A DNA stretch of 54,169 bases. Source: an uncultured Succinivibrio sp. Lineage in GTDB: Bacteria > Pseudomonadota > Gammaproteobacteria > Enterobacterales > Succinivibrionaceae. Made by a program: the position numbers and the translations under genes. Shown piece after piece: positions 30,109 through 40,909 of this stretch (the stretch's first letter is position 1; every line of letters starts with the position of its first letter). The notes beneath the pieces were generated by a model, which saw only the letters and a program-made list of their open reading frames with translations, had not been told where the DNA came from and searched no databases. The DNA lies in assembly GCA_905186145.1 (NCBI GenBank), contig LR994470.1, positions 1,117,376-1,171,544 on the forward strand, written 5' to 3'.

Positions 30109-30130
30109 AAGGGCAAGCTTAAAGCTTGCC
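30109..30130. repeat. Left copy of the 22-bp direct repeat; also a bidirectional terminator (rne/DeoR)
   Basis: AAGGGCAAGCTTAAAGCTTGCC, identical to 40862-40883. Confidence 0.9.
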
Positions 30131-30151
30131 CTTATTCTTATAGACTTTCAA

Positions 30152-30910
30152 TTAAACCAAAATTAGCTCAACGCCTAGTTTTATAATTTCATTAGCAACA
30201 TCTTTTGATAAACCATTATCTGTAATAATGGTATCTATTTCAGACAATTGTGCAACCTCATAAAGTTGGCTCTTTCCGTACTTACTACTATCTGCAACTA
30301 CAATTTTATGTGAGCTTACTTTCGCTAAATCCCGCTTTAAATTAGCTTTTTCTATTGTTGGAGCAGTAATGCCACAACGTAAATCCCACGCATTACAACT
30401 AATAAAAGTATAAGAAGGATGAATTGCATTAATTACTTCTCTAGCCTTATCTCCAATACAGGATTGAGAGGAGTTATCTATAGTACCCCCTGTTAAGCTC
30501 ACCTCTGACTTTGAATTACTATCTGCAAGCAAAATACCAATATGAAGATCTGTTGTAATAACCTTTAAAGGTACATCTATAAGACACCTTGCAATTTCAA
30601 TTGTTGTGGTTCCTGCATCAAATAAAACACTATCACCAGGTTTAATTAATTCAGCAGCTTTTTTTGCTATACGTAATTTTTGTTCATGATGCATTCTTTG
30701 CTTTTCTGATGTTGTTGGCTGTCTACTTGGAGAATCTTTTAAAGAAACACCTCCATGAACACGATAAACAGCCCCCGCTTTGTCTAATTTTATTAGATCT
30801 CGCCTAATAGTGGCAGGAGATGCCCCTGTTACATCTACAAGATCATCAACTGTTGCCAAACTTTTAGTTTTAAGAAACTCCAATATTTTTTCTTGACGGG
30901 ATACAAACAT
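30152..30910 (-). CDS. DeoR/GlpR (YgbI-like) transcriptional regulator
   Basis: SPATIRRDL, RVHGG and FDAGTTT motifs. Start set at ATG 30910 with GAGGA SD. Confidence 0.93.
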   Translation of the reverse strand: MFVSRQEKILEFLKTKSLATVDDLVDVTGASPATIRRDLIKLDKAGAVYRVHGGVSLKDSPSRQPTTSEKQRMHHEQKLRIAKKAAELIKPGDSVLFDAGTTTIEIARCLIDVPLKVITTDLHIGILLADSNSKSEVSLTGGTIDNSSQSCIGDKAREVINAIHPSYTFISCNAWDLRCGITAPTIEKANLKRDLAKVSSHKIVVADSSKYGKSQLYEVAQLSEIDTIITDNGLSKDVANEIIKLGVELILV

Positions 30911-30984
30911 ATCTAATCCTCGCATCATTATTTTTATTGCCTAATACATATATTATCAAATTTTTACTGCTTTAAGGATTATTT

Positions 30985-31000
30985 TGATTATAAACAATCA
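30985..31000. promoter_or_regulatory. Candidate DeoR operator 1
   Basis: TGATT-ATAAAC-AATCA (TGATT-N6-AATCA). Confidence 0.6.
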
Positions 31001-31035
31001 TTTTTATATTTTTTTTGATTAAATATTTTGAAATG

Positions 31036-31051
31036 CGTGATTATCTTCACG
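31036..31051. promoter_or_regulatory. CRP-like site
   Basis: CGTGA-TTATCT-TCACG with an A-rich left flank. Confidence 0.55.
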
Positions 31052-31063
31052 GTTTATATAATA

Positions 31064-31079
31064 TGATTGACTATAATCA
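31064..31079. promoter_or_regulatory. Candidate DeoR operator 2
   Basis: TGATT-GACTAT-AATCA. Confidence 0.6.
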
Positions 31080-31111
31080 CAAATGATGATTATTTATATA
31101 AGGTAATACAA

Positions 31112-33415
31112 ATGGATCTCAAACTTGCAATCATTGCAGATGATCTTACTGGAGCAAATGATAGCTCAGTACAATTTTCCACAAAAGGATTAAACACAGC
31201 AGTTGCCATTCCTGGAGCCGATATTTCGTGTATAAAAAATATCGAAGTATTGGTTTTAGATTGTGAAAGTAGAGATATTCCAAAAGATAACGCTTATTCA
31301 GCAGTTTTTTCAGCTACAAAAAAATTACTCAAATTAAACAACAAAATTAACATTTATAAAAAAGTAGACTCTACTTTAAGAGGTAATATTGGTGCTGAAT
31401 TAGAGGCCTTATATAAATCTTATGAACCATCTTTTATTGTTTTCGCCCCTGCTTTTATCGAAGGTGGCAGAACCACTATACATGGTTATCAATACCTGCA
31501 TGGAAAAAAACTTGAAGAGACAGAACTTGCAAATATTCCAAAGAGCCCTGTTACAAGTTCTTTTATTCCAGAAATTATTGCTAAACAAACAAATTTAAAA
31601 ACAGCTATATTAGATTTAAGTGTTATAAATCAAGGTGTTCATGCAATAGAAAACAGTTTACAAAAAATAATTAGTAGTGATATAAAAATCGTTATTTCAG
31701 ATGCAAAAAAAATAGAAGATCTTGATTTATTAGTAAATTGTTTACAAAAGTATGAAAAAGTAATTTATGCAGGATCCGCAGGTCTTGCAAAATCTTTATC
31801 AAAATTTATCCAATCTTCAAAAATTGAAGATGTGATTCCAAAAGCAAAAAAGATCTTGGTACTAGCAGGCTCAATAAGTGCAGTAACAAGATCTCAGTGC
31901 AAAAATCTTCTTAATTTAAGAAATGTAAAATTATTTGCCGCCGATCCTGTAGAAACAATAAAAAAAACAAATCTTTATGCTCAAAAAGTTTCACGTCAAA
32001 TAATAAATATGCAAAAAGACACCGATGTTATTTTAGTTTGTGGTGCCTTTAACGAAAATGACGTCCACAAAAGTTCCGAAGCAGGTTCTGAAATTGGGTT
32101 AAATTTCTTTGAATGTGGTGAGCGTATAGCTTGCTTTATGGCATCTTTAATGAATAGGTGCGCTGATTATTTCGATGCTTTTATCTTAACAGGCGGAGAT
32201 ACAGCTATACATGCGTGCAACTCTTGTGACGCAAATATACTAAAAATTTTAAAAGAAATTGAGCCTGGAATCCCACTTTTAAAAATAGCTTACGGCAAAC
32301 AAAAAGAAAAATACGTTATCACAAAAGCAGGTGCTTTTGGCAATCCACTTAGCTTAGTCAACTCAGTAAAAGTTCTATCTAACTCTTTAAAGAGGACCAC
32401 TATTATGAAAAAACCTACCATAGGTCTTACCATGGGAGATCCTGCTGGTATCGGCTCGGAGATTATTATTAAATCACTACAGGATCCCCAAATATATGAA
32501 AAAGCACGCCCTGTTGTATTCGGAGATGCTAAGCAGTTAAAACGTCTAATAAAAATTTTAAAATTGAATATCGACGTTCACAAAATAAACAACATAAAAG
32601 ACGCAAGCCCTTCTATAAATAGAATTGAAGTTGTAGATCTTGATAATGTTCCTGAAGATATTCCTTTTGGTCAAATAAATCCAATTTGTGGTAATGCAGC
32701 ATTTGAATATATTGAAGCAGCAATAAAGGCTCATCTTGCTCATCAAATACAAGCAATAGTTACAGCCCCTCTAAATAAAGAAGCTTTACATGCAGGAGGT
32801 CATAACTTTCCTGGACACACAGAGATTTTAGCTACTTTAACAGGAACTAAAGATTACTCAATGATGCTAGTAAGTCCAAAACTCAGAGTTATACATGTTT
32901 CGACTCATGTTTCTTTACGTGGTGCTTGCGATGCTTGTAAAAAAGAACGTGTCTATAGAGTAATAAAACTAGCTGACGACACCTTGAAACTTATGGGTTT
33001 TGAAAATCCTCGTATTGCAGTATCAGGATTAAATCCTCACTGTGGAGAACACGGATTATTTGGCAATGAAGATATAGAAGAAATTGTACCTGCTGTAGAA
33101 AAAGCTCAAGGTGAGGGCATAAATGTACAAGGTCCAATAGCTCCTGATACAGTATTTCATAGAGCCGCTAATAAAAACGAATTTGATATTGTCGTTGTTC
33201 AATACCATGACCAAGGACATATTCCACTTAAAGTATTAGGTTTTAGCTCAGGTGTAAATATTACAGTAGGCCTTCCTATTATTAGAACATCTGTTGACCA
33301 CGGAACCGCTTTTGAAATTGCAGGAAAAGGTATAGCAGATTCTGAATCAATGACTGCCGCCATGGAGATAGGAGCACAAATGGCTTCTGTCAAATTTGCT
33401 AACGAATTAATTTAA
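31112..33415 (+). CDS. Fusion: DUF1537 four-carbon acid sugar kinase (DtnK-like) + PdxA2 4-phospho-tetronate dehydrogenase
   Basis: N-half IIADDLTGAND, YKKVDSTLRG, TGGDT and TKAGAFG; C-half TMGDPAGIG, GHTE, HVSTH, GLNPH, YHDQGH and RTSVDHGTAF. Start set at ATG 31112 (AAGGT SD). Internal AGAGGA SD and in-frame ATG at 32405. Confidence 0.9.
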   Translation: MDLKLAIIADDLTGANDSSVQFSTKGLNTAVAIPGADISCIKNIEVLVLDCESRDIPKDNAYSAVFSATKKLLKLNNKINIYKKVDSTLRGNIGAELEALYKSYEPSFIVFAPAFIEGGRTTIHGYQYLHGKKLEETELANIPKSPVTSSFIPEIIAKQTNLKTAILDLSVINQGVHAIENSLQKIISSDIKIVISDAKKIEDLDLLVNCLQKYEKVIYAGSAGLAKSLSKFIQSSKIEDVIPKAKKILVLAGSISAVTRSQCKNLLNLRNVKLFAADPVETIKKTNLYAQKVSRQIINMQKDTDVILVCGAFNENDVHKSSEAGSEIGLNFFECGERIACFMASLMNRCADYFDAFILTGGDTAIHACNSCDANILKILKEIEPGIPLLKIAYGKQKEKYVITKAGAFGNPLSLVNSVKVLSNSLKRTTIMKKPTIGLTMGDPAGIGSEIIIKSLQDPQIYEKARPVVFGDAKQLKRLIKILKLNIDVHKINNIKDASPSINRIEVVDLDNVPEDIPFGQINPICGNAAFEYIEAAIKAHLAHQIQAIVTAPLNKEALHAGGHNFPGHTEILATLTGTKDYSMMLVSPKLRVIHVSTHVSLRGACDACKKERVYRVIKLADDTLKLMGFENPRIAVSGLNPHCGEHGLFGNEDIEEIVPAVEKAQGEGINVQGPIAPDTVFHRAANKNEFDIVVVQYHDQGHIPLKVLGFSSGVNITVGLPIIRTSVDHGTAFEIAGKGIADSESMTAAMEIGAQMASVKFANELI

Positions 33416-33455
33416 TTATTTTTAAATTAAATATTTCAAAAATATGGAGTTTTTG

Positions 33456-34337
33456 ATGTTTAAACCATATGGAATAATTACACCTGTTTTAACAGCTTTA
33501 GACGACAAAGAAAATTTTAATAAAGAAGCATATCAAAAATTTATCGATAAACTCATTAAAGCTGGTGTTCACGGAATTTTTGCCTTAGGGACTAATGGTG
33601 AATTCTACGCATTTAATGCTGAAGAAAAAATAGAAATAATTAAAGCAGCTCGCGAGGCTGTAGATGGCCGTGTACCTTTCTATGCTGGAACTGGATGCAT
33701 TACTACTAAAGAAACCATTGAACTTACAAAAGAAGTTGAGGCTTTAGGTGGTGTTGATTGCCTATCAATTATATCCCCATACTTTGTTGGCATTTCGCAA
33801 GACGATCTTTATCGTCATTTTAAGGATGTATCAAAATCAACTTCATTACCTGTTCTTCTTTACAATATTCCAGCAAGAACCGGAAACAATATTGATTATA
33901 AAACAGTAAAAAAATTAGCCGCAGAATGTCCTAATATCATTGGTATCAAAGATAGTTCAGGTAATTTTGACAATACACTCAAATATATTGAAAACACAGA
34001 TCCTCGTTTAAACGTATTAGCCGGATCTGATTCTTTGATTTTATGGACATTACAAGCAGGTGGAACTGGATCTATTTCCGGATGCTCAAATGTTTTCCCT
34101 GAACTTATGGTTTCTATATATAACCTATGGAAAGAAGGCAAATTTGTTGAAGCAAATGAGGCTCAAAAAAAGATTCGTCCATTTAGAAATGTTATGCAAA
34201 TGGGAAATCCAAACTCTGTTGTAAAACGAGCTTCTGATTTATTAGGAAATGGAACTGGTCCTGCTAGATCTCCATCCAATATAAACAATAAAGCTATTGA
34301 TGAGGCTTTACTTGAAGTCTTTAAACTCTACAAGTAA
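33456..34337 (+). CDS. DapA/NanA (DHDPS/NAL) family lyase/aldolase
   Basis: GTNGE, LYNIP (Tyr) and IGIKDSSG (Schiff-base Lys). Start set at ATG 33456 (GGAG SD). Confidence 0.9.
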   Translation: MFKPYGIITPVLTALDDKENFNKEAYQKFIDKLIKAGVHGIFALGTNGEFYAFNAEEKIEIIKAAREAVDGRVPFYAGTGCITTKETIELTKEVEALGGVDCLSIISPYFVGISQDDLYRHFKDVSKSTSLPVLLYNIPARTGNNIDYKTVKKLAAECPNIIGIKDSSGNFDNTLKYIENTDPRLNVLAGSDSLILWTLQAGGTGSISGCSNVFPELMVSIYNLWKEGKFVEANEAQKKIRPFRNVMQMGNPNSVVKRASDLLGNGTGPARSPSNINNKAIDEALLEVFKLYK

Positions 34338-34353
34338 TGGAATGAGGTAGAAA

Positions 34354-35520
34354 ATGTCCATATATTCCCAAACTTCCATTAGACGCATTATTGGCGGAGA
34401 AGGATCTATTTCGCAATCTTACGATATTGCTAAATCTTTTAATGCAAAAAATGTTGTTTTAATAACAGATAAAGTTGTCTACGAATTAGGATTAACTAAA
34501 ACCGCCGAAGAATATTTGGCAAAGGCCGGTTGTAATATACACATAATAAACGATGTTCCACCAGAACCTTCAGTAGCGCAAGTAAACCACATTTATGAAC
34601 AAGCAAAAGCTGTTGATTGTGATTTGTTAGTAGCTATTGGTGGTGGCTCATCCATGGATACTACAAAATTAGTTTCTTTATTATTAACAAACTCTATTTC
34701 TTTGGTTGAAATGGTTAAAGGAGCCAAACCTTCAAACAAAGGAATTCCAACATTATTTGTACCAACAACAGCAGGAACAGGATCAGAAGCTACGCCAAAT
34801 GCCATAGTTTTAGTTCCTGACGAAAATTTAAAAGTTGGAATTGTATGCGATTTTGAGGTTGCTGATGCTGTTATATTAGATCCAAATTTAACAAAAGATC
34901 TTCCTAAACCTATCACAGCAAATACCGGTGTTGATGCACTTTGCCACTTAATGGAATGTTTTATTTCAAAAAAATCAAATCCATTATCTGATGCTTTTGC
35001 TATTGCTGGAATAAAACTAGTTGGGGAAAGTTTAAGAGAATGTTATAAAAACGGCTCCAACCTAGTTGCACGTGAAAAAATGCTATTAGCATCGTGTTAT
35101 GGTGGTATATGCATAGCATCATCATCCACAACAGCAATACATGCTCTATCATACCCTTTAGGGGGACGCTATCACATTCCACATGGTTTATCTAATGCTA
35201 TTTTAATGCCTTTAATAATGGACTTTAACAAAGACTATTGTAAAGAAAAATATTGCATTATGGCTCAAGCTTTTGGATTAGAAACAACCGGTAAAACAAA
35301 AGATGAAATAGCTCAACAATTTGTTGAAGAACTATACTCTCTAAATCGAGATTTAAATATTAAATGCGATTTAAAAGCTGTTGGTGTTACAGAAGATGTA
35401 ATATCATCTTTAGTTGACGGAGCCTCTAAAGTAACAAGATTATTAAATAATAACCCTAAGCCTTTAAGCAAAAGTGATATGTACAAAATTTATGAAAATT
35501 TGTTAAAAGCTAATGCTTAA
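34354..35520 (+). CDS. Iron-containing alcohol dehydrogenase family protein
   Basis: GGGSSMD, PTTAGTGSE, DALCH and HALSYPLG...HIPHG motifs. Confidence 0.93.
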   Translation: MSIYSQTSIRRIIGGEGSISQSYDIAKSFNAKNVVLITDKVVYELGLTKTAEEYLAKAGCNIHIINDVPPEPSVAQVNHIYEQAKAVDCDLLVAIGGGSSMDTTKLVSLLLTNSISLVEMVKGAKPSNKGIPTLFVPTTAGTGSEATPNAIVLVPDENLKVGIVCDFEVADAVILDPNLTKDLPKPITANTGVDALCHLMECFISKKSNPLSDAFAIAGIKLVGESLRECYKNGSNLVAREKMLLASCYGGICIASSSTTAIHALSYPLGGRYHIPHGLSNAILMPLIMDFNKDYCKEKYCIMAQAFGLETTGKTKDEIAQQFVEELYSLNRDLNIKCDLKAVGVTEDVISSLVDGASKVTRLLNNNPKPLSKSDMYKIYENLLKANA

Positions 35521-35526
35521 AAAAAC

Positions 35527-35559
35527 AAACGCCTTGTGATTAATATACAAGGCGTTTTT
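35527..35559 (+). terminator. Intrinsic terminator after Fe-ADH
   Basis: AAACGCCTTGT...ACAAGGCGTTT followed by T run. Confidence 0.8.
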
Positions 35560-35647
35560 CTTACAAATTCATATTAAATCACCTCATTTTAAATAAACTA
35601 CAATAATATCAATATATTAGTGCACGTATTTTTTTATAAATCAATAT

Positions 35648-35663
35648 TGATTTATAATAATCA
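35648..35663. promoter_or_regulatory. Candidate DeoR operator 3 (upstream of the TRAP operon)
   Basis: TGATT-TATAAT-AATCA, same geometry as 30985 and 31064. Confidence 0.5.
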
Positions 35664-35919
35664 TATTTATTATTAAGCAATCATTTTTTCTTAAAAAAAA
35701 CATCAAAAAATATAAAAAAACACATTTTTTTATTAAAAATAGTACTCATTTATACCCATAACTAATAAGAAATCATTACTTATAAATTTGTATTATCTTT
35801 TTAAGATTGTTATTAAACAAATAACAATTTTGTCGTTATAAATTATCAAGTTAATTTCAAACAACAATCACAAAATAACTTTAATTTATAGAAAAAAATA
35901 AATATGAAAAATATTTTTG

Positions 35920-35935
35920 CGTGATATAAATCATA
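35920..35935. promoter_or_regulatory. CRP-like site upstream of the TAXI SBP
   Basis: CGTGA-TATAAA-TCATA; shares TGCGTGAT with the 31036 site. Confidence 0.4.
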
Positions 35936-36048
35936 ATTTAATCATAAAAAATAATTTTTGATTAAAAATACTACTATACTTCTTAACATAAAAGATCAAA
36001 GACATCTTTACTAATAAAATCAAACATTCAAATAGAGGGTATTAAGTT

Positions 36049-37080
36049 ATGGCTTTAACATTAAAAAAAATCTCTGTTGCATGCGCTATTGCTACTTTTT
36101 CTTTATATTCAGGATTTGCCCAAGCCGCACCAGCTCCACTCACAGAGCCTGTAAAATTGACTTTTGCAGCTCAAGAAGTTGGAACAGCTGCTTATAACTA
36201 TGCAAGCGCTCTGCAGGCAGTAATGATTAAAGGATTACCTGAAGGCTCCTCTATCAATATTACAACTTCATCTCCTGGAGCTGTAGGCGCTCCTATTATC
36301 GTAAATGGTGGAAAAAAAGCTGACATCATTATGTCAAACTCTGCCCCTGCTCGTTGGTCTTACGAAACAGGCATTTTAGGCAAAGCTCCTACCAAAAATA
36401 TTGCCTCTTTAGGTGGTGGTTTTGGCCATGATTTTGTAAACGTAATGTTTACTCAAAAATTTGTTGAAAAAACTGGTATCAAAACCATTGAAGATTTAGT
36501 TGCACAAAAATACCCTGTAAAGATTGTTATTAAAAAGAATGGTTCTTTAGGAGAACTTTCTGCAGAAAAGGTCTTTGAAGCTTTAGGTGTCACTTTTGAT
36601 GATATTGAAAAATGGGGCGGTGTAGTTGAAAAAACTGGTGGCGATGCCATTAAATCAGGTCTTCAAGATGATATCTATGATATGACTATTGATCACATTG
36701 GTGCAGGTCAATCAAACACAACAGAATTATGTTTGACACATGATATGTATGACGTTCAATTGGCTGACTCTACTTTACAAAAATTAGTCGATATGGGTTA
36801 CGACTATGTCGAAGTTGCTCCTAATACTTGGAAAGGTCAAGAAACTGCTATTAAATCAGTTGGCTCTCAACAAGAGGTATTAGTTTCTACTTCTATGGAT
36901 GAATCCGTAGCTTATGCTTTAACAAAAGCAATCATCGAAAATAAAGATGAATTATCACAAGCAGTTTCAGCTATGAAATATTTTGCCCCTCAAACTGCCG
37001 GAACTAAAGCTATCACTGGCGTAGATTTACATCCAGGTGCAGCAGCTTACTACAACGAAAAAGGATTACCTTCTAAATAG
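36049..37080 (+). CDS. TAXI family TRAP transporter solute-binding protein
   Basis: Signal peptide AQA; GTAAY-type N-terminal motif and DLHPGAAAYYNEKG C-terminus; adjacent fused permease. Confidence 0.88.
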   Translation: MALTLKKISVACAIATFSLYSGFAQAAPAPLTEPVKLTFAAQEVGTAAYNYASALQAVMIKGLPEGSSINITTSSPGAVGAPIIVNGGKKADIIMSNSAPARWSYETGILGKAPTKNIASLGGGFGHDFVNVMFTQKFVEKTGIKTIEDLVAQKYPVKIVIKKNGSLGELSAEKVFEALGVTFDDIEKWGGVVEKTGGDAIKSGLQDDIYDMTIDHIGAGQSNTTELCLTHDMYDVQLADSTLQKLVDMGYDYVEVAPNTWKGQETAIKSVGSQQEVLVSTSMDESVAYALTKAIIENKDELSQAVSAMKYFAPQTAGTKAITGVDLHPGAAAYYNEKGLPSK

Positions 37081-37089
37081 TAAGTAAAT

Positions 37090-37117
37090 AAAGAAGGTGT
37101 AATTTAACACCTTCTTT
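37090..37117 (+). terminator. Hairpin between SBP and permease (partial terminator or mRNA stabiliser)
   Basis: AAAGAAGGTGT-N6-ACACCTTCTTT; a second hairpin lies at 37148-37184. Confidence 0.65.
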
Positions 37118-37238
37118 CAATTGAAATTTATAGATAAAAATTCTTTTAACGGTATTTAGTAATTAGCCAAATATAAATACCGTTTTTTATCTTCATAAAC
37201 TTTTATTTGTTCATCAAACACTGAAAAAAAGGTTCATC

Positions 37239-39215
37239 ATGTCAGAACAAAAAAGATCTTGGCGCTTTTACGCACTTATTGCAGTAACCATCGCCTTCTT
37301 TGGCTTTCAGATGTATTTAGCACTTGTAAAGCAACTAACACCTATGCTGCAAAGTCCTTTGCACCTTGTATTGGCATTAGCTGTAATATTCTTAGTCTAT
37401 CCTACAGATCGTAAATATCGTGATAATCTCAAGCGCAAAACTGAATTAAACGGCACATCTTTAACTGACGATCTTTTAAATAAATTTAAATGGACCCGTT
37501 TTTTTGACATTTTTTCTTTTGCCGGAATTGCATTGCTTTTCTACTACTGCATCACAGAGTATGAAAGATTGGCAAATTTTACCCCATTTATTGATGAAGT
37601 ATTTCCTTTAGATATAACAGTAATGATTGTTACTATTGTTCTCTTACTTGAAGCTGTAAGAAGAACTTTAGGAAATATTCTTTACTTCTTTATCATTGCA
37701 TTCATTGTATTTGCATGGATTTCTCCTTGGTTGCCAGGAATTTTCTTCACAAAAGGCCTACCTTTTAATGAAATGCTTGACCAATTTACTATTGGTATGA
37801 CCATGGCAGAGCAAGGTGTATTTGGAACTCCTTTATATACTTCAGCCTCTGCTCTTTTCTACTTCATTGTTTTTGGCGTTTTCTTTTCCGAATGCGGTGG
37901 AGGACAACTCCTCATTGACATTGGTATGAAATTTTCAAATAAGTCATCAGGAGGACCTGCTAAAGCTGCCGTTATCTCATCCGGTCTTATGGGCATGGTT
38001 TCAGGCTCTGCCGTAGCTAACGTTTCTACAACCGGAGTTATGACAATTCCAATGATGAAAAAAATTGGTTATCTACCTCAAGAAGCAGGCGCAATTGAAG
38101 CTGTAGCTTCTACTGGTGGACAAATCATGCCTCCTATTATGGGTGTAGGAGCTTTCATCATGGCAGAAATGCTTGGTATACCTTATTTCGATGTTGCTGC
38201 AGCAGCATTACTTCCTGCTTGTGCTTTCTACTTTGGCGTATTCGTTTTAGTTTCTTGTTTAGCCCGCAAGCGTGCTGCCAGATCTAATACTGGAGAAGAC
38301 GTTAAAATTGAAGTAAAACAACCTATATTACCTAGACTTTATCTATTATTACCAGTAATTCTTTTGGTAACTTGGATCATTAGTGGATCTTCATTAATGC
38401 GTTCAGGAATGGTTGGTATTTTTGCCATATTATTATTAAATATTGTCAGCTACTTTGTTGGCAAAAAACAAAACTTTGTAAATATCAAAAGATTAGGAGA
38501 TTGTTGCGTTAGAGGCGTAAAACAAGCTGCTTCTATTGCTATTCCTACTGCAGCTTGCGGTATTATCATCAATGTTGTAACAGGACAAACTTCTTTAGCA
38601 ACAAATCTGTCAGGTTTAATTGGGTCTCTTGGTGTAGACTACCTTTTTGTTGCATTATTAATTGCTATGATTGGTTGTATGGTATTAGGTATGGCCTTAC
38701 CAACTGTAGCAGCTTACTTAGTTGGAGTAATATTATTCGTTCCTGTTATTAGAAGCTTAGGAGTTGATGCTCTTTGTGCCAATATGTTTGTATTTTACTA
38801 TGGCATTATGGCTCAAATTACCCCTCCTGTTTGTGTCGCATCCTATACTGCAGCTGGTATTGCAGGAGCTGATGCAATGAAAACCGGCATCAACGGCATG
38901 TTATTTGCATTAGTTGGATTTATGGTACCTTTCGTATTCATTTACAATCCAGCAATATTACTTGAAGGATCAATAATCGAGATTGTTTTAGGCGGCATCC
39001 AATTGATGATCGGCACTTATTTCTTGGCTATTACTGTATCTGGTTTCTGGAAAACACATATACCTGTTTGGCAAAGACTCATTACATTTGGTGTAAGTAT
39101 TGGCTTCATTATTCCAGAAGCAACATCATCAATTATCGCTCTGATTGTAGGCTTTGGAGTATTGTCATTAAACTTCATAGCATTTAAAAAGTTGCCATCA
39201 AAAGTAGGTGTGTAG
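37239..39215 (+). CDS. TRAP transporter 4TM/12TM fused permease (TAXI-associated)
   Basis: GGPAKAAVISSGLMGMVSGSAVAN, ASTGGQIMPP, GMALPT and ITPPV motifs. Confidence 0.92.
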   Translation: MSEQKRSWRFYALIAVTIAFFGFQMYLALVKQLTPMLQSPLHLVLALAVIFLVYPTDRKYRDNLKRKTELNGTSLTDDLLNKFKWTRFFDIFSFAGIALLFYYCITEYERLANFTPFIDEVFPLDITVMIVTIVLLLEAVRRTLGNILYFFIIAFIVFAWISPWLPGIFFTKGLPFNEMLDQFTIGMTMAEQGVFGTPLYTSASALFYFIVFGVFFSECGGGQLLIDIGMKFSNKSSGGPAKAAVISSGLMGMVSGSAVANVSTTGVMTIPMMKKIGYLPQEAGAIEAVASTGGQIMPPIMGVGAFIMAEMLGIPYFDVAAAALLPACAFYFGVFVLVSCLARKRAARSNTGEDVKIEVKQPILPRLYLLLPVILLVTWIISGSSLMRSGMVGIFAILLLNIVSYFVGKKQNFVNIKRLGDCCVRGVKQAASIAIPTAACGIIINVVTGQTSLATNLSGLIGSLGVDYLFVALLIAMIGCMVLGMALPTVAAYLVGVILFVPVIRSLGVDALCANMFVFYYGIMAQITPPVCVASYTAAGIAGADAMKTGINGMLFALVGFMVPFVFIYNPAILLEGSIIEIVLGGIQLMIGTYFLAITVSGFWKTHIPVWQRLITFGVSIGFIIPEATSSIIALIVGFGVLSLNFIAFKKLPSKVGV

Positions 39216-39216
39216 C

Positions 39217-39660
39217 ATGATTATTGATAAATTAAACAATATCTTATTCTATAAAAGCCTGCTTCCTAATATAGAAAATGGCTTAGAAAAACTCAAAATA
39301 ATTAACTTGGATTCTGTAGGTAAATATGAATTTGATGGAGGTTTTTTAATAATCCAAGAAGGTAATACAAAACCACTTACAGAAGGAACATACGAAGCTC
39401 ATAAAAAATTTATAGACATTCAAATTATGTTAGATGGTAGTGAAGAATTAGCTTGGGACGATCTACAAGATCTTATCGAGTGCATTCCTTATAACGAAGA
39501 AAAAGACGCTACTAGATATAAAGGAAAGCTAGAACATACTATAAAAATTACAAAAGGAATGTTTTACATAGCTTTTCCTCATGATGGACACAAGCCTGTT
39601 TCTCATCAAGAAACTCAGCAGCATTTCAAAAAAATTATTATGAAATTACCTGTAGCCTAA
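39217..39660 (+). CDS. YhcH/YjgK/YiaL (DUF386) family protein
   Basis: EAHKKFIDIQ and FPHDGHKP motifs. Start set at ATG 39217 (AGGTG SD). Confidence 0.9.
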   Translation: MIIDKLNNILFYKSLLPNIENGLEKLKIINLDSVGKYEFDGGFLIIQEGNTKPLTEGTYEAHKKFIDIQIMLDGSEELAWDDLQDLIECIPYNEEKDATRYKGKLEHTIKITKGMFYIAFPHDGHKPVSHQETQQHFKKIIMKLPVA

Positions 39661-39685
39661 GTTCAAACAAATTATGGAGAACAAA

Positions 39686-40846
39686 ATGGAATTACCACAC
39701 TTACAGAGCTTATCGACAGATGGTAAACTTTATATAAACGATGATATGTGCACTATTGAGGCTATGATTCCTCCAGGAAACTACAAATCAGCACACGCTC
39801 CTGCACTTTTAGAAATGCCTTCAGGAGATATTCTTTGTGCTTGGTTTGCAGGATCATTTGAGGGAAGTGCTGATGTAAGTATTGTGTGTGCCCGTTTAAA
39901 AAAAGATACCACCTCTTGGGAAGCTCCTGTAAAAGTATCCGTTGATCCTCACAGATCTGAACAAAATCCTTCTCTGTTTTTAGGACCTGATGGTTTGATT
40001 TGGGCTATGTATACAGCACAATTAGATAGAGTTCCTGGAAAAGATAATATGCAATTCACTTCCCAAGTAAGGCTACAAAAATCATCTGATGGTGGCCAAA
40101 GTTGGAGCGAATTTGAAACAATATTCCCTAAAGAGGGAACTTTCTGTCGCCAGCCAATTCAAGTATTAAAAAATGGTCGTTTTATATTTGGAAACTGGCT
40201 TTGCACTGATTCCCAAAATGGATTAGAAGGGGATCCTTCTGTATTCAAAATCTCTGATGATCAAGGAAAGACTTGGCGTGAAGTTGAAATGCCTGAAAGT
40301 TCAGGTGTTGTACACCCAAATGTTGTTGAACTTGAAGAAAATCATTTAATTGCTTTTATGCGTAGCCGAGCTGCAGACTTTATTTATAAGTCAGAAAGTT
40401 TTGATAATGGAGATCATTGGTCAATACCTGAACCAACTGTTTTACCAAATAACAACTCTAGTATAAGTGCATTAAAGTTAAAATCAGGCAGAATTGCTAT
40501 AGCTTACAATCCTACTCATGCACCTAATGCGCAAAAAGGAAATGTAGCCTGGCCGGGATTGCGATGCCCTGTTGCAGTTGCTTTATCAGAAGATGGTGGT
40601 AATACTTTCCCTATGATTCGTTTAATGGAGCGCGGAGAAGGTTTCTGCGGCAAAGAAAATACAACAAATAACAAACAATACGAATACCCATATCTCATGC
40701 AAAGCAAAGATGGTCGTTTACATTTAGCTTTTGCTTATAAAAACCGCATTGGCATAAAGTATATGAGCTTTACAGAAGAAGATATAACAGGAATAAAACG
40801 TGAAACTGTTGGCTTATATAACCCAACAGCAGCTCAAAGTCGTTAA
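39686..40846 (+). CDS. BNR/Asp-box beta-propeller, sialidase-like fold, cytoplasmic, non-canonical active site
   Basis: Four Asp boxes (SSDGGQSW, SDDQGKTW, SFDNGDHW, SEDGGNTF) and YEYP. No signal peptide, no RIP motif. Start set at ATG 39686 (GGAG SD). Confidence 0.85.
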   Translation: MELPHLQSLSTDGKLYINDDMCTIEAMIPPGNYKSAHAPALLEMPSGDILCAWFAGSFEGSADVSIVCARLKKDTTSWEAPVKVSVDPHRSEQNPSLFLGPDGLIWAMYTAQLDRVPGKDNMQFTSQVRLQKSSDGGQSWSEFETIFPKEGTFCRQPIQVLKNGRFIFGNWLCTDSQNGLEGDPSVFKISDDQGKTWREVEMPESSGVVHPNVVELEENHLIAFMRSRAADFIYKSESFDNGDHWSIPEPTVLPNNNSSISALKLKSGRIAIAYNPTHAPNAQKGNVAWPGLRCPVAVALSEDGGNTFPMIRLMERGEGFCGKENTTNNKQYEYPYLMQSKDGRLHLAFAYKNRIGIKYMSFTEEDITGIKRETVGLYNPTAAQSR

Positions 40847-40861
40847 CAATTTGTTATACAT

Positions 40862-40883
40862 AAGGGCAAGCTTAAAGCTTGCC
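40862..40883. repeat. Right copy of the 22-bp direct repeat; also a bidirectional terminator (BNR / ydfG-like)
   Basis: AAGGGCAAGCTTAAAGCTTGCC, identical to 30109-30130, followed by T8. Confidence 0.9.
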
Positions 40884-40909
40884 TTTTTTTTACCTTATAA
40901 AATATAAGA

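Follow-up and report, generated by a model that had tools for sequence, protein, structure and literature searches.

A conserved gene island in Succinivibrio predicted to degrade a seven-carbon acid sugar, possibly Dha

What substrate would call for a four-carbon acid-sugar kinase, a PdxA2-type dehydrogenase, a Schiff-base lyase, an iron-containing alcohol dehydrogenase (Fe-ADH) and a sialidase-fold protein in one place, beside an importer and a DeoR-family repressor? This combination lies in the window analysed here, a stretch of 54,169 nucleotides from an uncultured Succinivibrio sp. An open reading frame check with Pfam/NCBIfam assignment over positions 30152-40846 found all eight genes present and intact at the coordinates listed below, bearing out every family in the inventory of a first-pass annotation. 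We consider it probable (roughly 0.8) that they form one conserved acid-sugar pathway leading to pyruvate and DHAP via tetronate 4-phosphate. As the substrate of such a DeoR-controlled system we would expect a dicarboxylic 2-keto-3-deoxy sugar acid with seven carbons, most likely Dha (3-deoxy-D-lyxo-hept-2-ulosaric acid), a rare sugar of side chain D of the pectin rhamnogalacturonan-II (RG-II). The identification of the substrate as a Dha-type C7 diacid is a more tentative proposal, to which we give slightly less than even odds. The features of the island are as follows.

30109..30133, no strand: palindromic terminator-like repeat, left copy (AAGGGCAAGCTTAAAGCTTGCCCTT), just past the RNase E gene; left island edge
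30152..30928, minus: DeoR-family repressor (Pfam HTH_DeoR 57 bits, DeoRC 157 bits)
30985..31079, no strand: divergent promoter region, with exact TGATT-N6-AATCA palindromes at 30985-31000 and 31064-31079
31112..33415, plus: in-frame fusion of a four-carbon acid-sugar kinase (DUF1537; SBD_N and NBD_C) with a dehydrogenase/decarboxylase of PdxA2 type (PdxA)
33444..34337, plus: DHDPS/NAL-family class I (Schiff-base) lyase (GTNGE 49-53, Tyr140, Lys169, Arg145)
34354..35520, plus: Fe-ADH (Pfam/NCBIfam)
35530..35561, plus: hairpin CGCCTTGT-N9-ACAAGGCG, then a T run
35648..35663, no strand: TGATT-N6-AATCA palindrome, third exact copy, within the gap of 529 bp that precedes the importer genes
36049..37080, plus: TAXI-family TRAP solute-binding protein with a visible signal peptide (TIGR02122 109 bits, cut-off 84)
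37239..39215, plus: fused TAXI-type TRAP permease (TIGR02123 533 bits, cut-off 321)
39208..39660, plus: YhcH/YjgK/YiaL (DUF386) protein (TIGR00022 76 bits, cut-off 45.5)
39686..40846, plus: six-bladed BNR_2 sialidase-fold protein (open reading frame 39674-40846; homologues begin at 39686)
40862..40886, no strand: palindromic terminator-like repeat, right copy; right island edge

The DeoR-family gene is transcribed divergently from the catabolic genes, and its product falls below every equivalog cut-off, the closest NCBIfam models being AgaR, YgbI and SrlR. Exact matches to TGATT-N6-AATCA number three in the 54-kb window, all within the two promoter regions of the island, and these palindromes are candidate DeoR operators. 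The hairpin at 35530..35561 was found by direct reading, its nine-nucleotide loop placing it outside the list from our hairpin scan (loop limit 8 nt), and it is probably the terminator of the first transcription unit. Together with the 529-bp gap, this terminator-like hairpin divides the island into two transcription units.

Whether such a set belongs together was addressed by a survey of 36 loci from other genomes, each with at least 7 kb on either side of the BNR gene. Nearby genes included PdxA at all 36 loci, the lyase and Fe-ADH at 35 each and the kinase at 32, with 245 of 254 core genes on the BNR strand, while YhcH was present at 13 and the TAXI importer at 12. This grouping is beyond chance, and the core consists of BNR, lyase, Fe-ADH, kinase and PdxA2, with YhcH and the type of transporter variable. 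A lack of co-occurrence of the families in other genomes had been set beforehand as a refuting result, but they do co-occur (32-36 of 36 for the core), in keeping with the earlier proposal of a single conserved pathway rather than tetronate use plus bystanders. The same proposal had treated TAXI and YhcH as part of the full gene set, which holds for the window, though both are optional elsewhere.

A BNR relative is found in 378 species genomes. The core enzymes cluster, mostly on one strand, in Lachnospiraceae, Oscillospiraceae, Christensenellales and Succinivibrio, in an order that is shuffled among clusters, with BNR frequently between kinase and Fe-ADH; loci from other phyla have them interleaved within single operons, for example kinase-BNR-Fe-ADH-lyase-PdxA. 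Replicons of Sinorhizobium, Agrobacterium and Pantoea carry the same core set, and Rhizobium and Ralstonia plasmids carry BNR homologues (a result for the BNR gene itself, from an unannotated record). Gene fusions join three of the steps, kinase-PdxA2 in the window and kinase-Fe-ADH at locus L053. The hosts are bacteria of herbivore and omnivore guts and plant-associated bacteria, and hundreds of such species have the island in common.

The end of the pathway is the part most readily assigned. The fusion reading frame spans 782 codons (31067-33415) and opens with a TTG at 31067, although the likely start is the ATG at 31112, as previously annotated; an in-frame ATG at 32405 marks where its PdxA2 part begins. 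The kinase half best fits the D-threonate kinase model (262 bits, vs 165 for 3-oxo-tetronate kinase), a ranking that also holds for the Enterocloster and Sinorhizobium kinases, and the PdxA part scores 322 bits against the PdxA2 structure, 306 against that of D-threonate-4-P dehydrogenase and 179 against E. coli PdxA. Both nevertheless lie under their NCBIfam equivalog cut-offs (262 vs 450 for the kinase, 365 vs 583 for the PdxA domain), and sequence does not separate D-threonate from D-erythronate specificity. The Pantoea PdxA orthologue bears the PGAP label D-threonate 4-phosphate dehydrogenase.

For the lyase, the intact GTNGE, Tyr and Lys noted before were located at residues 49-53, 140 and 169. 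It is nearer DapA than NanA (203 vs 118 bits; NCBIfam), its DapA-model score of 203.3 stopping just short of the 206.15 cut-off, and a separate true DapA (308 bits) is encoded elsewhere in the genome; on sequence grounds the island lyase is distinct from this housekeeping enzyme, which shares its YNIPGR motif. Arg145 occupies the position of DapA Arg138, a residue that binds the carboxylate of aspartate semialdehyde, a C4 aldehyde-acid. By alignment to E. coli reference sequences, an Arg stands there in 49 of 50 cluster orthologues; E. coli NanA has a Leu. Second among the NCBIfam models for the lyase ranks a DapA-like aldolase whose substrate is 2,4-dihydroxyhept-2-ene-1,7-dioate, a C7 diacid (TIGR02313; 177 bits for the window lyase and 214 for that of Enterocloster, cut-off 397). 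A Schiff-base lyase feeding a DUF1537/PdxA2 back end, as first suggested, is supported, and C7 = C3 + C4 stands as the simplest carbon arithmetic.

It is the Fe-ADH that requires the earlier scheme to be revised. The enzyme is under all equivalog cut-offs, the nearest models being lactaldehyde, sulfoacetaldehyde and 4-hydroxybutyrate type enzymes. The first-pass annotation had it oxidise a tetrose released from a 3-deoxy-heptulosonate, but Fe-ADHs interconvert only alcohols and aldehydes and make no acid from a tetrose, a conversion requiring an aldehyde or lactol dehydrogenase; comparison of sister loci found no aldehyde dehydrogenase, lactol dehydrogenase or lactonase in the conserved core. 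We therefore reverse the step, from aldehyde-acid to tetronate, and because it runs as a reduction the substrate should be dicarboxylic, a heptulosaric acid of which Dha is one example, in place of the heptulosonate.

The remaining genes would act before the lyase. Characterised TAXI proteins have C5 dicarboxylates as ligands (PMC11574862). Carriers in several sister clusters are of the di/tricarboxylate types DASS, CitMHS and CitT, and together with the Arg138 equivalent and the plant-linked hosts they fit a second carboxylate on the substrate. The YhcH protein, at 76 bits against a NanQ cut-off of 160, is proposed to be an anomerase or ring-opening helper. The BNR_2 protein has four Asp boxes, no signal peptide and an active site unlike GH33, with a His aligned to the catalytic Glu of NanB; we propose that it may be a ulosonidase-like enzyme that works inside the cell on a small glycoside or derivative of Dha. 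Both had been given a preparatory role; BNR, the most conserved and most constant pathway gene across clusters, belongs to the core and is thus no mere accessory.

Family membership and gene context then suggest the following route for every step. Dha, or a small Dha-containing fragment, would be taken up by the TAXI-TRAP system; the cytoplasmic BNR protein would liberate or convert the imported form, and YhcH would accelerate ring opening. The lyase would form a Schiff base at C2 and cut C3-C4, giving pyruvate and D-threuronate (a C4 aldehyde-acid), whose aldehyde the Fe-ADH would reduce with NAD(P)H to D-threonate. The kinase half would produce 4-phospho-D-threonate, and the PdxA2 half would oxidise C3, the resulting beta-keto acid shedding CO2 to leave DHAP. 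The predicted net reaction (Dha + ATP to pyruvate + DHAP + CO2) would be redox-neutral, which fits a fermentative gut anaerobe. By our own derivation the D-lyxo configuration of Dha (C4-C6) leaves D-threo at C5-C6, and cleavage and reduction should therefore yield D-threonate and not L-threonate or erythronate. Part of the chemistry is absent from this scheme, because free Dha needs no glycosidase-like BNR, yet BNR is the most conserved gene, and the plain Dha route gives the esterase-like genes of Firmicutes clusters no role. No DUF1537 gene was found in Bacteroides thetaiotaomicron, a known RG-II degrader, and there is therefore no link to a characterised RG-II locus.

The strongest alternative, though an unlikely one, is a different ulosonic acid, or an as yet unknown acid sugar from plants or microbes (candidates being Kdo, Kdn, a relative of sialic acid, or an anhydro or unsaturated form), with the kinase and PdxA2 acting on something other than a simple tetronate. 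Resemblance to nan systems (sialidase fold, YhcH, NAL-family lyase, organic-acid importer), the sub-equivalog scores that leave exact kinase and PdxA substrates open, and the core status of BNR, which suggests an imported glycoside or derivative, all favour it. Cleavage of Kdo, Kdn or Neu5Ac, however, yields neutral C5/C6 sugars needing isomerases, epimerases or sugar kinases, which are missing from the clusters: neither the eight island genes nor the sister loci examined include one of NanK or NanE type. To our knowledge, characterised DUF1537/PdxA2 pairs all act on C4 acids, and in redox balance and stereochemistry this alternative has nothing as simple to set beside the Dha route.

Less likely still is a monocarboxylic 3-deoxy-heptulosonate (such as 3-deoxy-D-arabino-heptulosonate) or its glycoside, cleaved to pyruvate and a tetrose that is oxidised to D-erythronate or D-threonate and passed on to DHAP and CO2. 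It shares the C3 + C4 arithmetic and the kinase/PdxA2 end, a few clusters have an additional SDR as a candidate for lactol oxidation, and import in the Pantoea cluster relies on a sodium:solute symporter, whose family is not specific to dicarboxylates. Against it, Fe-ADH, the sole conserved redox enzyme before the kinase, is of a type that does not turn aldehydes into acids, aldehyde dehydrogenase and lactonase are both missing from the core, the Arg138-position Arg and DASS/CitMHS/CitT carriers indicate a second carboxylate, and we are not aware of any abundant source of free 3-deoxy-heptulosonates in the environment.

We think it improbable that a C4-C7 sugar acid enters as an ester or lactone (Dha lactone, for instance, or threonate or tartrate esterified with a hydroxycinnamoyl or oxalyl group), with BNR a non-glycosidase that opens, for example, lactones or esters. 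Many Firmicutes clusters do have esterase-like genes, among them cytoplasmic alpha/beta-hydrolases of PHB-esterase and BD-FAE types (up to three per locus), the rhizobial clusters have hydrolase genes on their flanks, and the BNR site departs from GH33. But no esterases were found in the window, in Succinivibrio or among the listed E. coli GR6 genes, and they are therefore accessory; moreover, simple tetronate esters require no lyase, and we know of no lactonase activity in the BNR_2 fold. Finally, a tetronate-use pair and an unrelated nan-like set might have been brought together as separate modules by chance or island assembly, which would accord with the two transcription units of the window but is very improbable given the interleaving in other phyla, the 32-36 of 36 co-occurrence and the identical palindrome in both promoter regions.

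Our literature search found no characterised or published pathway with this gene set, as the first-pass annotation had supposed, and the nearest systems each match the Dha route in part. The DtnK and PdxA2 pair of Salmonella and other Enterobacterales, said in work by Zhang et al. (2016, PNAS) to turn D-threonate into DHAP and CO2, shares the two families, DeoR-type control and an organic-acid importer, with DtnK and PdxA2/D-threonate-4-P dehydrogenase the closest matches to the island domains; in the island, by contrast, they are fused in one polypeptide, score under equivalog cut-offs and are always joined to lyase, Fe-ADH and sialidase-fold protein, so that D-threonate would be an internal intermediate and not an imported nutrient. 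The front end follows the logic, enzyme types and carboxylate importer of nan systems (sialidase, SiaPQM/NanT/SiaT, NanQ/YhcH, NanA), but without NanK, NanE or NagA/B, with C4-acid steps downstream, a lyase nearer DapA that keeps the DapA-type Arg, and a sialidase-fold protein that is cytoplasmic and altered in its active site. The HpaI-like aldolase of TIGR02313 (2,4-dihydroxyhept-2-ene-1,7-dioate / 4-hydroxy-2-oxoheptanedioate) has the DHDPS fold and, from a C7 2-oxo diacid, yields pyruvate together with a C4 aldehyde-acid, as proposed for the island lyase, which scores far under its cut-off of 397 and lies in a sugar-acid and not an aromatic degradation context. Closest in content are island GR6 of E. 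coli B2 strain BEN2908 (CitT, YhcH-like, COG4692 (BNR), DapA-like, Fe-ADH, DUF1537, PdxA2 and DeoR/GlpR), an orthologous set assigned no pathway in a 2026 paper (PMC12928451), and a Sinorhizobium meliloti pSymB cluster with orthologous BNR, PdxA, Fe-ADH, kinase and DHDPS-family genes and an ABC importer. These two differ from the Succinivibrio island in their CitT or PepT-type ABC transporters, in the GntR regulator of the rhizobia and in encoding kinase and PdxA2 as separate genes.

The ORF listing and the family scans agree with the first-pass annotation on every gene it named in the island and on where each one lies. The features are as follows:

30152-30928, minus strand, DeoR regulator (family scan)
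31067-33415, DUF1537 kinase (SBD_N and NBD_C) fused to a PdxA domain, 782 codons (ORF listing and family scan); likely ATG at 31112, PdxA part from 32405
33444-34337, DHDPS-family lyase
34354-35520, Fe-ADH
36049-37080, TAXI binding protein with signal peptide
37239-39215, fused TRAP permease
39208-39660, YhcH/DUF386 protein
39674-40846, BNR_2 protein without signal peptide; homologues begin at 39686

The island comprises two transcription units: the Fe-ADH gene is followed by a hairpin and T run, and the importer genes are preceded by a gap of 529 bp. The palindrome TGATT-N6-AATCA occurs three times in exact form in the 54-kb window (30985-31000, 31064-31079 and 35648-35663), always within the island's two promoter regions, and these copies are candidate DeoR operators. 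A palindromic, terminator-like sequence of 25 nt stands on either side of the 10.75-kb block (30109-30133 and 40862-40886), its two copies identical in their first 22 bases, and the block may have been inserted at them or exchanged by recombination between them. The block looks like an accessory island, because no more than about 12 of the 36 remaining species genomes in the genus have a BNR orthologue (65-71% identity).

Co-occurrence in other genomes, a check put forward in the first-pass annotation, supports a functional unit. Neighbouring genes in fetched loci were found by tblastn with each window protein, and among 36 loci whose flanks reach 7 kb or more on either side of the BNR gene, PdxA is nearby in all 36, the lyase and the Fe-ADH in 35 each, and the kinase in 32; 245 of 254 core genes at these loci share the strand of the BNR gene. 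Gene order differs by lineage, kinase-BNR-Fe-ADH-lyase-PdxA being common, and this shuffling rules out two modules that merely adjoin. YhcH (13/36) and the TAXI-TRAP importer (12/36) are optional, and the transporter varies with lineage: sister clusters include DctQM TRAP and CitMHS/DASS carriers, the Pantoea cluster has a sodium:solute symporter, and those of Sinorhizobium and Agrobacterium have a PepT-type ABC system. The Escherichia coli B2 island, with a CitT carrier, is region GR6, listed without pathway assignment in a 2026 paper (PMC12928451).

BNR homologues with 69-77% identity occur in Lachnospiraceae, Clostridia and Succinivibrio, and a scan of one genome per GTDB species found a relative encoded in 378 of them. 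Many Lachnospiraceae and Oscillospiraceae have the cluster itself, as do Succinivibrio, E. coli B2, Sinorhizobium, Agrobacterium and Pantoea; plasmid-borne BNR homologues are recorded mostly for Rhizobium (128 records), Sinorhizobium (78), Pantoea (27), Ralstonia (21) and Agrobacterium (17). Faecal and gut metagenomes contain the window's own sequence; a search of public RNA data for the region returned only DNA or metagenome runs. From the gut occurrences and the plasmid-bearing genera, we infer a host range that takes in both the animal gut and plant-associated bacteria. Clusters of this kind were also seen on contigs binned as Bacteroidota, from a Prevotella sp. MAG (L019) and a B. thetaiotaomicron MAG (L043), with BNR proteins 70-76% identical to the query, reflecting either horizontal transfer or mis-binning. 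The Bacteroides thetaiotaomicron control genome lacks a DUF1537 gene, and no link to characterised loci for rhamnogalacturonan-II (RG-II) could be made there.

At the back end of the pathway, a single ORF carries a two-domain DUF1537 kinase (SBD_N 196 bits, NBD_C 82 bits) and a PdxA-family dehydrogenase (PdxA 367 bits). Against NCBIfam, the kinase scores higher with the D-threonate kinase model (261.7 bits) than with the 3-oxo-tetronate kinase model (165 bits), and the Enterocloster and Sinorhizobium orthologues rank the models in the same way. Compared with solved structures, the PdxA domain matches 2hi1 (PdxA2, 322 bits) and 6e85 (D-threonate-4-phosphate dehydrogenase, 306 bits) well ahead of E. 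coli PdxA (1ps6, 179 bits), scores that place it in the PdxA2 subtype and not with the PLP-biosynthetic PdxA; a more distant second PdxA elsewhere in the genome is likely the PLP enzyme. Conversion of a tetronate 4-phosphate into DHAP and CO2 is thus a well-supported prediction from these family assignments. D-threonate in particular is a likely rather than an established substrate, because both domains fall below the NCBIfam equivalog cut-offs (261.7 against 450 bits for the kinase, 364.7 against 583 for the dehydrogenase).

At 32341-32420 in the window, kinase and PdxA2 belong to one ORF, but they are two adjoining genes in Succinivibrio dextrinosolvens (L042 2832-5145; L048); an in-frame ATG at 32405 could yield a separate PdxA2 from the fused ORF. 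A Lacrimispora MAG encodes the kinase and the Fe-ADH in a single 804-codon ORF (L053 1725-4139), which could be an assembly artefact. Both fusions fit consecutive steps of a pathway. Outside the window, its own genome has two more DUF1537 kinases (C1:1031640-1032818 and C1:35952-36635), one of them near a DeoR regulator (C1:1034066-1034809), which probably serve other tetronate pathways. In a Succinivibrio sp. MAG (L014 / L038 1-7998), TAXI, TRAP, YhcH and BNR genes follow a divergent Fe-ADH (22% identity) and a dehydrogenase of the Iso_dh family, which takes the place of PdxA2; the contig ends upstream, and this variant may be an alternative back end.

The lyase retains the Schiff-base Lys169, Tyr140 and GTNGE motif that had been described as intact. 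It is not the housekeeping DapA: it scores 203.3 bits against the DapA model TIGR00674 (cut-off 206.15), just short of the threshold, and the genome encodes a better DapA at another locus (308 bits). Positions are given by E. coli DapA, a reference checked against the genome's own DapA, which carries the same YNIPGR motif. Across 50 lyase orthologues from the clusters, neither the catalytic triad of DapA (Tyr133-Thr44-Tyr107) nor its GTTGE motif is complete: the Tyr107 position is Phe in 49 and the Thr45 position Asn in all 50. The Tyr133, Lys161 and Arg138 positions are retained, the last as Arg in 49 of 50. In DapA, Arg138 holds the C4 aldehyde-acid aspartate semialdehyde by its carboxylate; the equivalent residue of E. 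coli NanA is Leu. The second-best NCBIfam model, at a score far under its cut-off, is TIGR02313, which describes a DapA-like aldolase acting on a C7 2-oxo diacid. A third DHDPS-family paralogue in the genome (L017, C1:1323919-1324767), in which YSIPQCSG replaces the Arg-containing motif, is probably a different aldolase.

The sole conserved enzyme between the lyase and kinase steps is the Fe-ADH, which is closest to enzymes of the lactaldehyde, sulfoacetaldehyde and 4-hydroxybutyrate type. The first-pass annotation had it oxidise a tetrose; this step was the weak link of that scheme, because Fe-ADHs interconvert primary alcohols and aldehydes and do not turn aldehydes into acids. If the kinase acts on what the Fe-ADH makes, a 2,3,4-trihydroxybutanoate, then the lyase must release 2,3-dihydroxy-4-oxobutanoate, and its substrate must be a 4,5,6-trihydroxy-2-oxoheptanedioate, a 3-deoxy-heptulosaric acid. 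Dha (3-deoxy-D-lyxo-hept-2-ulosaric acid), a sugar of side chain D of RG-II in pectin, is the one natural compound of this kind that is well known. Working through the Fischer projections, the D-lyxo configuration at C4-C6 of Dha leaves D-threo at C5-C6, so that the lyase would cleave Dha to pyruvate and D-threuronate, and the Fe-ADH would reduce the latter to D-threonate. The DtnK/PdxA2 route acts on D-threonate, and the proposed sum, Dha + ATP -> pyruvate + DHAP + CO2, would be redox-neutral. The earlier reading of the island as one pathway stands, with the Fe-ADH recast as a reductase and a C7 diacid as a more likely substrate than the C7 mono-acid first suggested. The conserved arginine of the lyase, the dicarboxylate-type carriers of sister clusters, and the C5 dicarboxylates bound by characterised TAXI proteins (PMC11574862) all fit a second carboxylate on the substrate. 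We tentatively propose, with a probability of roughly 0.4, that the island is the first known route for the breakdown of Dha, the heptulosaric acid characteristic of RG-II.

Several other substrates were considered and rejected. The C6 acid 2-keto-3-deoxy-glucarate would be degraded through tartronate semialdehyde and then glycerate, leaving the ever-present PdxA2 superfluous. Kdo, Kdn and Neu5Ac would give neutral C5 or C6 sugars, for whose use the clusters have no enzymes, and cleavage of the unsaturated uronate products DKI and DEH would yield a C3 dialdehyde. Feruloyl-esterase-like genes brought chlorogenate-derived quinate or shikimate into consideration, but no enzyme of the set suits the opening of a carbocycle.

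The importer is confirmed as a TAXI-type TRAP system, with 109 bits for TIGR02122 (cut-off 84.35) and 532.7 bits for TIGR02123 (cut-off 320.65), the membrane part being one fused protein; in a phmmer comparison with solved structures, the TAXI protein matched only distant glutamate or unknown-ligand TAXIs, which did not indicate its ligand. The YhcH protein can be placed in the broad YhcH/YjgK/YiaL family (75.9 bits, cut-off 45.5) but no more narrowly, its 75.6 bits for the N-acetylneuraminate anomerase NanQ lying under the equivalog cut-off of 160. Many Firmicutes clusters carry cytoplasmic PHB-esterase-like and BD-FAE esterases, which play no part in the proposed scheme. Loci of Enterocloster, Christensenellaceae and Owariibacterium have a BD-FAE esterase and one to three large, cytoplasmic alpha/beta-hydrolases beside the pathway; the hydrolases are PHB-esterase-like and in some cases give no Pfam match (L098 446-3467; L100 3182-6740 and 12622-14349; L045 16783-20027).

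The BNR protein is always present and is the most conserved of the set, at about 70-77% identity across phyla as against 40-50% for the other enzymes. Its AlphaFold model (pLDDT 84, pTM 0.86) is a six-bladed beta-propeller with four Asp boxes, and its top PDB matches are GH33 sialidases (TM 0.69-0.70, 19% identity). In an HMM alignment to pneumococcal NanB and NanC, invariant Arg226 corresponds to NanB Arg557, the second triad arginine, and invariant His210 to the catalytic glutamate, NanB Glu541; an AHAP motif (His37), placed by eye, is seemingly at the position of the RIP arginine, and a YEY motif (332-334) near the C-terminus is invariant. On this residue pattern the site looks like a rebuilt ulosonic-acid-handling site. 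No signal peptide is visible on the protein, and its gene lies within a cytoplasmic catabolic operon. In rhizobia, uptake of a small glycoside is suggested by their PepT-type ABC importers; a literature search on S. meliloti locus tags for inducers of the orthologous transporter gave nothing usable. Free Araf-Dha, the disaccharide L-Araf-beta1,5-Dha of side chain D, plausibly exists, because that side chain leaves RG-II on brief heating. With low confidence, we suggest that BNR is an intracellular ulosonidase-like enzyme acting on a small Dha glycoside or derivative.

Literature searches of incomplete coverage, on the breakdown of Dha, on RG-II together with threonate, on GH143 and Dha, on DUF1537 and on tetruronate or threuronate, returned no description of such a pathway, tetruronate being found only in plant tartrate biosynthesis. 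The pathway appears undescribed, a new combination of known families, to which the window contributes, from a Succinivibrio-like gut bacterium, the TAXI-coupled version and the fusion of kinase and PdxA2. No plant polysaccharide is more complex than RG-II, and we know of no account of the fate of its rare acid sugars once they are released; a Dha route would fill that gap and explain cross-feeding in the gut between RG-II degraders and scavengers. If correct, the proposal would provide a natural source for D-threonate and the DtnK/PdxA2 enzymes, a new reaction in the form of an Fe-ADH D-threuronate reductase, a Dha aldolase inside the DHDPS family, a new family of intracellular sialidase-fold enzymes with His replacing the catalytic Glu and Arg, and the first sugar-acid importer of the TAXI-TRAP type. 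Assigning the cluster would clear misleading annotations (exo-alpha-sialidase, DapA, PdxA) from thousands of genomes, and the cluster lends itself to work on a new sialidase-fold activity and on the specificity of TAXI transporters.

Some known systems invite comparison. The island lyase differs from the N-acetylneuraminate lyase NanA in scoring below its equivalog cut-offs (118 against 382 bits for TIGR00683, and 135 against 281 bits) and in having no nanK/nanE partners, genes of the NanK/NanE type being absent from the island's eight genes. The DtnK/PdxA2 module for D-threonate consists of the same two families, here with sub-equivalog scores. Finally, BNR has the fold and the Asp boxes of the GH33 exo-sialidases but not their location: those enzymes are secreted or sit at the cell surface, and their substrates are sialoglycans.
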